A DNA stretch of 64,000 nucleotides, from positions 32,001-96,000 of IMG/VR virus record IMGVR_UViG_3300036761_003779; one strand, given 5' to 3'. The notes beneath the pieces were generated by a model that did not search any database, was not told the DNA's origin, and saw only the letters and a program-made list of their open reading frames with translations. How positions within the stretch are numbered: the stretch's first letter is position 1; each line of letters begins with the position of its first letter. The stretch comes from a virus. A program made the position numbers and the translations under genes. This document shows, one piece after another, positions 5,167 to 63,828 of the stretch.

Positions 5167-7941
5167 TCAGGACAGTCGGCGGAACGGGAGGGCGCGGATC
5201 CGCGCCTGGAAGAACCGCCCCTTGCTCCCCGCCGCGAGTAGCTCCGGGAGGAGCGGCCCGGCGCCCGGGTAGACGTACTCGGCGCCCTTCCTGAACCGGA
5301 CGAGGAGGTCCTCCCCGTCCCGGCGGACCGCCGCGAGGTTCTCGCTCTCGACCGCGACCCAGCCGCCCGCCGCCGACGCCGGCCCGGGCTCAGCCTCCAG
5401 CCCCCGGAGCAGCTCCGGCGTCAGCTCGACCCGCTCCCCGGCCCGCTCCGAGAACCAGGCCCGGTGCGGCGCCTGGACCGCGTTCCGGATGGCCCGGGCG
5501 TGCGACCGGAGCGGCCGGACGAGGCGGTCCCAGAAGTAGAAGTACACGGCGTCGACCTTCCCCTCGTGCCGACGCTTGAGGCGCCCGACCTGCTGCGTGA
5601 ACCGCCCCGGGTTTGCCGCCGCCGGCGTCATGCCGAAGCCGCGGTCGAGCCGCTTCACGTCCATCCCCTCGTCCGCCACCGTCGTCCCGACCGCCACGCG
5701 GAGGGTCCCGTCCTCGAGCCCCTCCGCCGTCCGGTCCTGCTCCTTCGCGTCCCGCCCGCCCATGAGGCGCCCGGCGTGGACGCCCCGCCGCTTCAGCCAC
5801 GCCTGGATCTCGAGGCACATCTCCCGGCGGTCCGCGAGGAGGAGGCACGTCCGCCCGGCGGCGATCTCCGGGAGGAGGTACTCGAGGACCCGCGCGCGCC
5901 GGCGCTCGTCCCGCGTGGCCGCGTCGAGCATCTCCGCGTAGGTGTTCAGCGGCCCCGCAAAGTGGGTCTCCTTCGCCCAGCGGCGGACCGCCGCCGTCCC
6001 CGTCTCCCGCTCCAGCCGCTCGAAGCCGGCCGCCTCCAGCTCCGCCTCCCGGTTCAGGTCGAAGGCGAAGTCCGTCGGGACCACGACCACGTCCACGGGG
6101 ACGATGCGGTTGAAGCGGTCCAGGTCCTCGTCCCGGATCTCGAAGAGGACCCGCGGCCCGCGCGCCGTCCCGCCGCCCCGCTTCGGGACGTACTCGACCC
6201 CGAAGGCGTCGAAGAACAGCGGCTCCTTCTTGTCCCGCCGGTGCGGCGTGGCGGTGGCCGCCAGCCGGTTCCGAGCCGGGAATAAACTGATACATTCCGA
6301 GAACGTAGACGCGGCGCAATGGTGCGCCTCGTCAAGTATCAGCGTCCCCCAGCGGTTCACCCAGCCCGGGTCCGCCTTGACCTTGTTCAGGACGGAGCGG
6401 ATCATCCCGACGATCAGGTCCCCGTCCCGCTTCTCCCGCCCGTAGAGGACACCGATCCGCCGCTCCGGGACGGAGAACCGCGCCGCCGCCTTCCCCACCC
6501 ACTGCCGGAGGATCCGCTCCGTGTGGCAGAGCACCAGCGTCCGCTCCCCGAGGTCCGAGATGGCCTTGAGCAGGATCTCCGTCTTCCCGGAGTTGTGATG
6601 CCAGAGACCTCCGGCCCAGTAGTTCCCAAAGACCGGGACGTTGAAGTCAAAGTACGGCTCCGCCGGGACCGCCCGCGCGGAGAGGACCCGGACGAACTCC
6701 ACTGGACCCGGGTTATAGGTCCCTGTTAAGATGGACCCACCTAGAGGTGACTCGGATGAGAGAACGCCAGATGTGGGACAAAGCGCGCCGTCAGCGAGCC
6801 GCGGAGCTGTACCGCTCCGGACTCCTCCTAGAGGAGGTGGCGTCCGCCCTTGGGACGAGTCGGAACCGCGTCCGGGAGGCGCTCCGAACGCTTGGGGTGG
6901 AGGTTCGCCCGACTGCGTTCCAGAAGGGCGGGCTGACCGGTCGGAGGAACCCGAATTGGAAGAGCGATCGCCGGGTGGATGAGGATGGATACGTCCTCCT
7001 TCGGGTCCCGGGACACCCGGACGCAAAGCCGGGGGGATGGGTACTCGAGCACCGCCTGGTGATGGAGGGTCTTCTTGGGCGCCGCCTGACCGCGGAGGAA
7101 GTGGTCCATCACCGAAACGGAGATCGAGGAGACAACCGTCCGGAGAACCTCCAGCCGTTCGACTCCAATGGAGCGCATCTTGCGCATGAGCTTCGAGGGA
7201 GGACGCCGAACTGGACGGAAGGAGGACGCCAACGGACCCTGGACGGCCTGGAGCGGTGGCGTGGAGAGCTTCATAGATCTCACGGGCGGAGAGGAAATGG
7301 TGGCCGTCCCAGAAGAGGTGTCCCGGCCTGACGCGGAAGGTCCCCACCTCCGTCTCGATCTCCACGAGCTGCGCCGCCTCGAACATCACCGGCGGGAGCG
7401 CCGCGGAGACCACGGGACCGTTCGGTCCCATTGCCCAGACGTGGAAGGGCGCGCCCTCCGCCCAGCGCTGGAGGGCGGTTACATCGCTCCCGTCCGTTGG
7501 GTCTCGAATAACGGTAGATCCGTGGATACAAGCGCACGGGCCGACGAGGATGCCGGCGCGCCGGGCGACGAGCGCCTTGGCCGCGCTCCGCTGGTCCGGC
7601 CCCAGCTCCCACTCCGGCGGGCTCCGGTAGACGAAGGGGAGCGGCCCGGTCCCGCGGACCGTCCGGTCCACGGGCTCGATCTCCGCGCCGACCCGCGCCA
7701 GGAGCCGCTGGAGGACGACCCAGCCGCCGCGCGGGAGGAGGAGGTCCTCCCCCTCGTCCAGCACCAGGCTGAGCTTCCGCGGGGTCTCCCCCGTCCAGAA
7801 GCCCATGTTCGACTTCTTCCAGAACTCCGGGTTGTCCACCTCGAACGCCTCCCGGACCTCCCGGAGGGAGAGCCCGGCGTCCTTGGCCGCGCGCTTGCTC
7901 AGGCGGAGGTGGGCGTCGACGACGACCTTCAGCTTGACCAT
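5167..7941 (-). CDS. SF2 DExH helicase (UvsW/XPB-like) with intein and C-terminal KTSC-like domain
   Basis: Q motif LGPDQ; Walker A GPCA|SGKT; LILDEAHH; TATPHRRD; DEGMDV; QQVGRLKR; C-terminal VESENLAAV...LLVRFRKGAEYVY...AGSKGRFF. Confidence 0.9.
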   Translation of the reverse strand: MVKLKVVVDAHLRLSKRAAKDAGLSLREVREAFEVDNPEFWKKSNMGFWTGETPRKLSLVLDEGEDLLLPRGGWVVLQRLLARVGAEIEPVDRTVRGTGPLPFVYRSPPEWELGPDQRSAAKALVARRAGILVGPCACIHGSTVIRDPTDGSDVTALQRWAEGAPFHVWAMGPNGPVVSAALPPVMFEAAQLVEIETEVGTFRVRPGHLFWDGHHFLSAREIYEALHATAPGRPGSVGVLLPSSSASSLEAHAQDALHWSRTAGGSPDGCLLDLRFGDGPLPPRSGGAQEDPPSPGGARVPIPPALRPGVPGPEGGRIHPHPPGDRSSNSGSSDRSARPSGTQSGEPPPQAFGAPPGRGSDSSQGRTPPPLGGVRSGTAPRLADGALCPTSGVLSSESPLGGSILTGTYNPGPVEFVRVLSARAVPAEPYFDFNVPVFGNYWAGGLWHHNSGKTEILLKAISDLGERTLVLCHTERILRQWVGKAAARFSVPERRIGVLYGREKRDGDLIVGMIRSVLNKVKADPGWVNRWGTLILDEAHHCAASTFSECISLFPARNRLAATATPHRRDKKEPLFFDAFGVEYVPKRGGGTARGPRVLFEIRDEDLDRFNRIVPVDVVVVPTDFAFDLNREAELEAAGFERLERETGTAAVRRWAKETHFAGPLNTYAEMLDAATRDERRRARVLEYLLPEIAAGRTCLLLADRREMCLEIQAWLKRRGVHAGRLMGGRDAKEQDRTAEGLEDGTLRVAVGTTVADEGMDVKRLDRGFGMTPAAANPGRFTQQVGRLKRRHEGKVDAVYFYFWDRLVRPLRSHARAIRNAVQAPHRAWFSERAGERVELTPELLRGLEAEPGPASAAGGWVAVESENLAAVRRDGEDLLVRFRKGAEYVYPGAGPLLPELLAAGSKGRFFQARIRALPFRRLS
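6703..6732 (+). promoter_or_regulatory. Candidate sigma70-type promoter of the antisense HNH gene
   Basis: TGGACC-N18-TAAGAT with extended -10 TGn; the same motif occurs at 61568-61595 and 63801-63828. Confidence 0.5.
6756..7331 (+). CDS. HNH homing endonuclease with N-terminal HTH, nested antisense within the intein
   Basis: HTH ELYRSGLLLEEVASALGTSRNRVREALR; GRRNPNWK; GYVLLRVPGHP; EHRLVMEGLLGRRL...EVVHHRNGDRGDNRPENL (HNH_3/I-HmuI-like); GAGGT 7 nt before ATG 6756 (alternative GTG 6747). Confidence 0.9.
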   Translation: MRERQMWDKARRQRAAELYRSGLLLEEVASALGTSRNRVREALRTLGVEVRPTAFQKGGLTGRRNPNWKSDRRVDEDGYVLLRVPGHPDAKPGGWVLEHRLVMEGLLGRRLTAEEVVHHRNGDRGDNRPENLQPFDSNGAHLAHELRGRTPNWTEGGRQRTLDGLERWRGELHRSHGRRGNGGRPRRGVPA

Positions 7942-31915: not shown

Positions 31916-33114
31916 GCGTCCGCCTCCTCCTGCTTGGCCCCGGAGATGTTCCGCGGCGTCCCGACGACGGACTTCAGGGCTACCTTGTTGGCGGAGAACT
32001 CCGTCTCGTAGAGCGCCCCCTCCCCCATCTTCTGGGTCACCGCCGTCATCTGCCAGTCCCCGGAGAACCGCGGGCCAAGCCCCTTCAGCTCGTGGACGTG
32101 CCCCAGGCGGACGTCCGGGGAGCCGAGGATGGCCCCGCGCCCGAAGACGAAGTCGTTCTGACGCCGCTCGAACCACGCCTGGGCCCACCGCTTGCAGTCC
32201 GCCGCGGAGGTGAAGCGGCGGTCCATGACGACCTCCTCCCGCTGACCGAAGACGGTCAGGACCACGGAGGGTCCGTTGGGGATCCCCTTCCTGAGCTTCT
32301 CCTTCCCGGTGGCCGCCGCGAAGCGGGTCTTCTCCGCGTCCTTCTTCTTGACCTCCACGGCGATCCGGTGGAATTTGCGGGTCTTGGGGTCCAGGTACTG
32401 GACCTCGAGCTTCGTGGTCTGGGAGGGTAGGCTCATCTTGGGGTCGAAGTCGAGGAGCGTCGCGTCCGGCTCCCCGGTCCCGTAGATGAATTTGTGCTTC
32501 GTTGGCTGGTCCTCCACGTCCGGCGGCCCCCAGTACCCCACGTGCGTCCCCTTCTCCGGGTCCCAGCGGACCCAGCAGACGAAGGAGTGGTACGAGGCCA
32601 GGTCCTGGAGGAACTGCCACCGGGTCGTCCCCTTCTTCCGGACCCGGGTCACCGTCGGCTTGGTCTGGAAGACGAAGGGCGCGAAGCCCTCCTCCTTGAA
32701 GATCTTGGAGACGACGTCGGAGTCCCGCACCTTCCGGTAGACCTTCCCCTTGTCCTTGGCCCCGGTGTCCATCAGGAGCCGGGAGGCGTCGTGCGCCACG
32801 ATCGTCAGCCGCGGCATCCCGGAGCGCGGGAAGGAGGGGTCCGGCTTCACGATCGTCCCCCGGTTCATGAAATGCAAGGCTTTCCCGGCGTACCCCATCC
32901 AGAGGTCCAGGGTGTTCCCCTCCGCGAAGACCCGCTCGTCGAGGAAGACGAAGTTGGGGTTCATGACCTGGAGGGTGATCTTCGAGGCGGAGTTCTGCTC
33001 CTCGTGGTACTCGACGGAGGAGATGAACTGGGTGATGTCCTCCTTGAGCTTTGTACCCTCCACTACAATCAGGTAGCGGGGAGCCAGCATCGCGCCAAGC
33101 GTGTCCAGGGCCAT
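31912..33114 (-). CDS. Baseplate hub (late control D / gp27-like)
   Basis: LWMGYAG; TRWQFLQDLA; GSPDVRLGHVHELKGLGPRFSGDWQMTAVTQ. Confidence 0.85.
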   Translation of the reverse strand: MALDTLGAMLAPRYLIVVEGTKLKEDITQFISSVEYHEEQNSASKITLQVMNPNFVFLDERVFAEGNTLDLWMGYAGKALHFMNRGTIVKPDPSFPRSGMPRLTIVAHDASRLLMDTGAKDKGKVYRKVRDSDVVSKIFKEEGFAPFVFQTKPTVTRVRKKGTTRWQFLQDLASYHSFVCWVRWDPEKGTHVGYWGPPDVEDQPTKHKFIYGTGEPDATLLDFDPKMSLPSQTTKLEVQYLDPKTRKFHRIAVEVKKKDAEKTRFAAATGKEKLRKGIPNGPSVVLTVFGQREEVVMDRRFTSAADCKRWAQAWFERRQNDFVFGRGAILGSPDVRLGHVHELKGLGPRFSGDWQMTAVTQKMGEGALYETEFSANKVALKSVVGTPRNISGAKQEEADA

Positions 33115-61567: not shown

Positions 61568-61595
61568 TAGACCCGGGCGCCCCCGCTGTTAAGAT
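61568..61595 (+). promoter_or_regulatory. Candidate promoter
   Basis: TAGACC-N16-TAAGAT with TGn; followed by AGGAGG and ATG 61613. Confidence 0.5.
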
Positions 61596-63800: not shown

Positions 63801-63828
63801 ATCTTAGCACATGGAAAGAATCTGTCCA
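63801..63828 (-). promoter_or_regulatory. Candidate promoter of the small-gene operon
   Basis: TGGACA-N16-TAAGAT with TGn, in an AT-rich patch; ATG follows 6 nt after the -10. Confidence 0.55.

Follow-up and report, generated by a model that had tools for sequence, protein, structure and literature searches.

How can one stretch of DNA encode, on one strand, the inside of a protein that must splice itself and, on the other, a complete endonuclease, and what would keep both of those readings open? The question is raised by a superfamily 2 (SF2) helicase gene in the virus of IMG/VR record IMGVR_UViG_3300036761_003779, a genome of 105,878 bp rated 100% complete, of which we have analysed positions 32,001 to 96,000 (64,000 nucleotides, with a G+C content of about 68%, hereafter the window). 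The answer that we favour, and that we consider likely, is that the P-loop of this phage helicase is interrupted by an intein in whose nuclease slot there sits, antisense, a gene for a helix-turn-helix (HTH) HNH endonuclease; that the helicase message is read straight through this slot; that the intein is then spliced out; and that the HNH protein is made separately, for homing. The parts of the helicase gene, in window coordinates, are as follows.

5167-7941, minus strand: helicase precursor open reading frame (ORF), 924 aa, consisting of N-extein, intein and C-extein with a KTSC-like tail; PHROG DNA helicase, 1.9e-35
7531-7941, minus strand: N-extein, precursor residues 1-137, up to and including the first half of Walker A, GPCA; G+C at third codon positions (GC3) 0.99
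7186-7530, minus strand: intein N-lobe, intein residues 1-115, with Cys1 and block B (RPGH); predicted local distance difference test (pLDDT) 93-98; intein codon position 3 least conserved to about residue 101
6706-7185, minus strand: intein linker, residues ~116-275, read through the antisense of the HNH gene and predicted to be disordered; GC3 0.48 in the intein frame
6592-6705, minus strand: intein C-lobe, residues 276-313, with blocks F and G (YFDFNVP...NYWAGGLWHHN); pLDDT 96-98; the most conserved block of the family
5167-6591, minus strand: C-extein, beginning with Ser+1 (SGKT) and running through the helicase core and KTSC-like tail to the stop codon; GC3 0.96

Is there really an insertion? 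The original prediction, made by a model from the letters alone, was that Walker A is split between GPCA and SGKT by a 313-aa intein, and comparison with intein-less relatives and a model of the fold both bear this out. The 313-aa insert (precursor residues 138-450; 6592-7530, minus strand) lies exactly between GPCA and SGKT, starting with CIHGST and ending with WHHN, with Ser as the next residue. Its boundaries can be called exact because alleles that lack it are available for comparison, in three related viral contigs where the helicase is uninterrupted and Walker A reads GVCA-SGKT (L001) or GPCS-SGKT (L002 and L003). The Pfam families ResIII, DEAD and Helicase_C, which identify the SF2 helicase, are matched only from precursor residue 451 onward. 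GC3 is 0.96-0.99 in the exteins, 0.80 in the intein and 0.68 in the HNH gene, a contrast that fits a foreign element. The helicase has a peculiarity of its own at its far end, where a KTSC-like C-terminal domain is fused to it (5167-5400, minus strand); in two of the intein-less contigs the same domain is a separate downstream ORF (L001:5617-6063 and L002:5882-6214).

And is the insertion an intein? An AlphaFold2 model built on a 32-sequence alignment (A2) gives pLDDT of 93-98 for residues 1-125 and 276-313, and of 40-50 for residues ~130-272, which are without secondary structure. The best PDB matches that Foldseek found for this model are all inteins (template-modelling (TM) score to target 0.72-0.79, probability 1.0), headed by Ssp DnaE (1zd7, TM 0.79), Mtu RecA (2imz, 0.78) and Npu DnaB (4o1r, 0.76). 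On this model the two ends of the insert form a Hint (intein) domain. We take the intein to be of class-1 type. Cys1, the HHN at residues 311-313, Ser+1, the block-B His and the block-F Asp are all present in the window intein, and Cys1, His71, His312 and Asn313 are invariant among 32 relatives. Two details of the original prediction need amending. It had blocks A, B, F and G intact, which is right for Cys1, block F and the terminal HN and wrong for block B, where Arg68 replaces the usual Thr; and it had about 190 aa of Pro/Ser/Gly-rich sequence in the middle, where the stretch predicted to be unstructured is shorter, at about 145-160 aa (residues ~116-275).

Across from this middle lies the second gene, whose features are these.

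6756-7331, plus strand: HTH-HNH endonuclease gene, 191 aa from the ATG at 6756, with an in-frame GTG at 6747 as an alternative start
7050-7151, plus strand: HNH catalytic core, EHR...VVHHRNG...DNRPENL; HNH_3 at residues 102-135
6743-6747, plus strand: Shine-Dalgarno sequence AGAGG, 8 nt before the ATG at 6756
6724-6732, plus strand: promoter-like extended -10 motif, TGTTAAGAT, upstream of the HNH gene
6724-6732 (plus strand), 61587-61595 (plus strand) and 63801-63809 (minus strand): copies of the motif TGYTAAGAT within the window; two others lie outside it

A complete HTH and HNH gene with its own ribosome-binding site had been predicted here, and it is what we find: besides the AGAGG, the ORF matches Pfam HNH_3 (1.4e-8; 34.7 bits against a cut-off of 24.8) and HTH_23, as well as PHROG HNH families to 3e-26. 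In an alignment of 22 HNH homologues (A3), H119, N127, N131 and N138 do not vary and H141 hardly varies, and the AlphaFold2 model of the protein has a pLDDT of 85. Relatives have GGAGG-type Shine-Dalgarno sites before the HNH ATG, and a conserved MPKG start. The motif TGYTAAGAT(G) occurs five times in the 105.9-kb genome, where 0.13 occurrences would be expected (~40-fold), each time 20-45 nt upstream of a Shine-Dalgarno site and a start codon, and is probably the -10 element of this phage's promoters. Some of the copies have in common an upstream GGACAGATTCTTTCC, and two of them, the HNH copy included, have GACCCGGG. When the locus was compared by blastn with isolated phages, only 119 nt of the HNH core matched, in three Pseudomonas phages.

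That both frames are stop-free over about 575 nt, the whole of their overlap, is as first noted; what does it mean? We estimated how many stops should be there by shuffling the codons of the HNH ORF, or by resampling them synonymously, and counting the stops that appear in the intein register. At the window locus 3-4.4 stops are expected and none is observed (P(0) = 0.006-0.018). Whether the two-strand coding goes beyond chance is decided by the family, rather than by this single locus. A tblastn search with the window HNH protein finds a homologue (36-57% identity) antisense inside an intein in about 30 loci, roughly 20 of them distinct, from viral contigs and one Phycisphaerae metagenome-assembled genome, with locus G+C ranging from 0.32 to 0.71. 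Antisense HNH ORFs in other inteins, which the original prediction proposed to look for, are thus plentiful, and they have the same layout and a constant register, in which position 1 of an intein codon is paired with HNH position 1, position 2 with position 3 and position 3 with position 2. At these related loci shuffling predicts 4-16 intein-frame stops and synonymous resampling 3-9, and the observed number is zero in all but one (L006). Homologues with stops in the intein frame, which would have hinted at an intron or a split gene, are in other words absent from about 20 distinct loci with a single exception, L006 itself, which has six.

If the frames are held open, for which protein are they held? 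When 23 HNH genes are aligned by codon, their nucleotide identity is 0.535, 0.589 and 0.334 at HNH positions 1, 2 and 3, and the same bases have an amino-acid identity of 0.44 when translated in the HNH frame and of 0.195 when translated in that of the intein. Conservation in the N-lobe (residues 1-101), and again in the C-lobe, is lowest at intein codon position 3; across residues ~102-200 it is lowest at intein position 2, that is, HNH position 3, with the hand-over at about residue 102. At the two ends of the intein, then, it is the splicing domain that is under selection, and in the middle it is the HNH protein, the intein frame there being merely kept free of stops, just as had been expected (purifying selection in the HNH frame, stop avoidance and nothing else in the intein frame). 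The composition of the intein middle, rich in Pro, Ser, Gly and Arg, follows from the same geometry, because the G+C-rich third positions of the HNH codons are the second positions of the intein codons. The middle can even be recognised in the intein frame by a hidden Markov model (HMM) in 110 of 149 representative proteins (P0005-P0152), with E down to 1e-21. This conservation is a shadow of the HNH gene and not a domain; the worry that the insert might match a real conserved domain is answered by its disorder in the AlphaFold2 model and by position 2 being the least conserved. A shadow peptide of this kind is, of course, open to being mistaken for a new protein domain.

The splicing domain has a wider family, and its distribution is telling. 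Searched with HMMER, 1.84 billion representative proteins yielded 163 relatives, all of them in the P-loops of varied ATPases, with the pattern G-x-x-x-G/CL.GDT.I.DP ... YYDFHVP..NYWA.G..HHN/[CST]GK[ST] (the slashes mark the ends of the intein). With the alignment of these relatives, loci L005-L048 were retrieved; a search of viral contigs with the window intein as a single sequence found nothing. The pair of intein and HNH gene is housed in the SF2 helicase of the window, in SMC-like, clamp-loader-like AAA and TraG-like proteins and in other AAA ATPases, always at the P-loop site G-x-x-x-G/[CST]GK[ST]. Pairwise distances between splicing domains (taken from the HNH-free parts) and between HNH proteins are correlated (Mantel r = 0.757, p = 2e-4), and this co-divergence, together with the constant P-loop position, agrees with a composite element that travels as one piece. 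The idea that the locus is a composite selfish element was there from the start, and it has gained support from the open frames, the purifying selection on HNH, the ribosome-binding site with its promoter-like motif, and the co-divergence.

How the composite came about is another matter. An HNH gene had been imagined to land in a mini-intein, which our data do not show: the last 48 or so HNH codons lie opposite the folded intein N-lobe, not opposite a dispensable loop, so the 3' end of the gene overlaps the splicing domain, and two short relatives carry relics of HNH. The same splicing-domain family does include minis of 141-204 aa without HNH. The two relatives in question (L028:2501-3070, 190 aa, and L029:2501-2992, 164 aa) are short inteins with antisense remnants of the 3' half of HNH, 139 and 82 codons long, and because they keep these remnants, at least some minis of the P-loop family must have arisen by deletion of the nuclease. 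Two other members (L038:1742-2716 and L046:1736-2623) have different, apparently in-frame middles and no antisense HNH; the middle of the former has a weak Phage_endo_I-like match (E 0.015). It seems from these sequences that one intein lineage has hosted several types of nuclease.

We can now put together how the locus might work. The helicase mRNA would be translated straight through the antisense of the HNH gene, giving about 150 disordered residues between two Hint lobes; the lobes would fold around this linker, and splicing would excise the 313-aa insert and rejoin GPCA to SGKT. The HNH protein would be made from the plus strand by way of its own promoter-like motif, Shine-Dalgarno sequence and ATG. 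It would presumably cut P-loop alleles that lack the intein, and repair of the break would copy the element in, which is homing. These steps are what the sequence leads us to expect of the locus.

Several observations weigh against this account, and they should be seen together. The open frame at the window locus, taken alone, has a probability of only about 0.01. In the Foldseek search with the HNH model no match reached E <= 0.001, and the homing endonuclease-like hit that one would like to see, I-HmuI (1u3e), ranked second, with a probability of 0.96 and a weak E of 0.12 over 93 columns. The window intein, searched alone, has no match in Pfam (E <= 0.1), in NCBIfam or, by phmmer, among PDB sequences, so that of the profile matches foreseen on the two strands HNH_3 was found on the plus strand and Hint was not found on the minus strand for this copy; against the 35.8-bit cut-off of Intein_splicing (PF14890), the relatives L038 (56.2 bits, 4.6e-15) and L046 (41.7 bits, 1.3e-10) score above and L019 and L015 below. 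In block B the window has Arg68 where 131 of 143 relatives have Thr, the only credible alternatives being Ala (4) and Ser (2), and a copy with Arg68 may splice poorly. Finally, the same sequence is present in three sediment metagenome samples, and an intein-less allele of this phage, which would have pointed to ongoing mobility, turned up in none of the three; their contigs show no joint spanning the intein.

The rival that fares best grows directly out of these points. Suppose that the element is just as we have described it and that this copy is decaying: T68R would slow or block the first step of splicing, leaving the helicase partly or wholly inactive, or making splicing conditional. The departure from a nearly universal Thr and a score below every HMM threshold speak for such a copy. 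The frame is nonetheless open where 3-4 stops are expected, Cys1, the block-B His, the block-F Asp, the terminal HN and Ser+1 are in place, the exteins show strong coding bias in a genome rated complete, and the same sequence recurs in three sediment samples, all of which make the impaired copy unlikely in our judgment. As to Arg68 itself, its codon lies at window 7327-7329 (minus strand). The Thr codon ACG and the Arg codon AGG differ by a single base, and Arg68 could be a one-base change, either a recent mutation or an assembly variant.

A second rival accepts the intein and questions the homing. The HNH protein might be an ordinary phage nuclease, serving packaging, competition or exclusion, that has lodged in a tolerant site of an immobile intein. 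Its closest profile families are, after all, free-standing phage HNH endonucleases, and polymorphism between intein-less and intein-plus alleles was not seen in the three metagenomes. What such a lodger would not readily account for is that it diverges in step with the splicing domain (r = 0.757) and keeps a single shared register, that the pair turns up in unrelated P-loop ATPases at always the same site and hence moves as a unit, and that short relatives retain HNH remnants, as the homing cycle predicts. We regard this rival as improbable, a little more so than the impaired copy.

A third possibility is that the gene is split, or "fractured": the N-half and the C-half would be made separately, the latter from an internal GTG, and trans-spliced, with HNH free-standing between them. 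The public gene call does begin the C-half inside the intein (P0004, a 511-aa "helicase" starting at a GTG 37 residues before the intein end, in the region 6592-6705), and one relative truly has the split form. In that relative (L006; IMGVR_UViG_3300049489_001113, 223-2007) the N- and C-lobes are in the same frame with the six stops between them, AAGAGG and an ATG start a C-intein of 37 aa that continues into an intact AAA domain, and an intact antisense HNH gene (467-1006) separates the two halves. The arrangement resembles a natural split intein, or a fractured gene, derived from the read-through form. The six stops also show how fast stops build up once the frame is no longer needed. In the window, by contrast, the intein frame is free of stops and no good Shine-Dalgarno sequence comes before the internal GTG, and about 20 relatives keep the frame open against expectation, something a split gene would not need, so that we think a split gene here very improbable. 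Gene callers fragment precursors of this kind (here into the 511-aa "helicase" and an "HNH endonuclease").

The weakest rival, that the plus-strand ORF is open by chance and the insert an ordinary intein with a new in-frame domain, draws on the frequency of long antisense ORFs in DNA of about 68% G+C and on the weakly conserved middle that an HMM recognises in 110 of 149 relatives, and it is ruled out by codon-position conservation (in the middle the most variable position is intein position 2, equivalent to HNH position 3) and by an AlphaFold2 middle without structure, quite apart from the HNH_3 score above its curated cut-off, the PHROG match at 3e-26 and the presence of the same HNH in loci at 32-38% G+C.

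We return, then, to the read-through intein with its antisense HNH, and allow ourselves one larger thought, offered tentatively and with the odds against it: the P-loop inteins may be a large unpublished class, in which antisense HNH and splicing domain are a co-evolved unit that hops among ATPase genes by recognising P-loop DNA, and L006 may be a step on the way to a split intein. Were this true, antisense invasion would be a general way for inteins to acquire nucleases and for split inteins to originate. Even short of that, one splicing domain can host an antisense HNH gene, in-frame domains, remnants and a split form.

How new is all this? The original prediction knew of no described intein class with such a layout, and on this point it was mistaken, since antisense LAGLIDADG and VSR-like cases have been reported. 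Inteins with an antisense LAGLIDADG nuclease are those of Synechocystis DnaX and a Chloroflexus SpoVR-like protein (Gorbalenya 1998, as cited in bioRxiv 10.1101/2025.01.02.630785 and 10.64898/2026.09.14.751524). The first of these preprints describes antisense nucleases, LAGLIDADG or VSR-like, in inteins of actinobacteriophages and argues that such inteins are under-annotated, and the second, from 2026, gives a frame-wise selection analysis of the dnaX case. The likeness to our locus is close: an opposite-strand nuclease in the endonuclease slot, an open intein frame, an unstructured segment, a nuclease under purifying selection, and for both a proposed origin in the invasion of an intein by a free-standing nuclease gene. 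The differences are that the window nuclease is an HTH-HNH protein (HNH_3) where the described types are LAGLIDADG or VSR-like, that the window family occupies a single P-loop position across many unrelated ATPases, and that its HNH ORF overlaps part of the folded N-lobe. A literature search for antisense HNH in inteins returned only the 2025 preprint (10.1101/2025.01.02.630785), in which HNH is in-frame. The layout, that is, is already known; the HNH version and the P-loop family were not found in papers. The finding adds the HNH type to a short list of antisense intein nucleases, and the P-loop ATPases of uncultured phages may themselves be under-annotated.

Other systems resemble the locus in part. 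Fractured genes (2009, PMC2677866), in which a nuclease gene lies between split-intein halves, likewise have a separate nuclease gene between the N and C parts of an intein, and L006 has this broken form; there, however, the nuclease is in host-gene orientation, with a stop and a new start and with trans-splicing, whereas in the window it is antisense and the polypeptide is continuous. Inteins with an in-frame nuclease share the Hint domain, the nuclease slot between blocks B and F and the expected homing cycle (L038 and L046 are apparently of this kind), and differ in that the window nuclease is encoded apart from the intein polypeptide. In ShiLan (PMC11855218), out-of-frame HNH insertions are found in phage methylases without a splicing domain; there too a hidden HNH gene overlaps a stop-free host frame, on the host strand in a different frame, and not, as here, antisense within an intein. 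A further comparison is with group I introns whose homing endonuclease gene is on the complementary strand, such as those of Porphyra rDNA (PMC2585584), where an antisense nuclease gene also lives inside a self-splicing element. The intron is removed as RNA, and its sense strand need not be translatable; the intein's must be. Because an intein has to be translated and the nuclease gene lies opposite, several hundred bases must code both ways, and the family shows how strong this constraint is, with none of the stops, up to 16 of them, that one would expect, at G+C contents from 32 to 71%, and with a clean hand-over of selection from one frame to the other.

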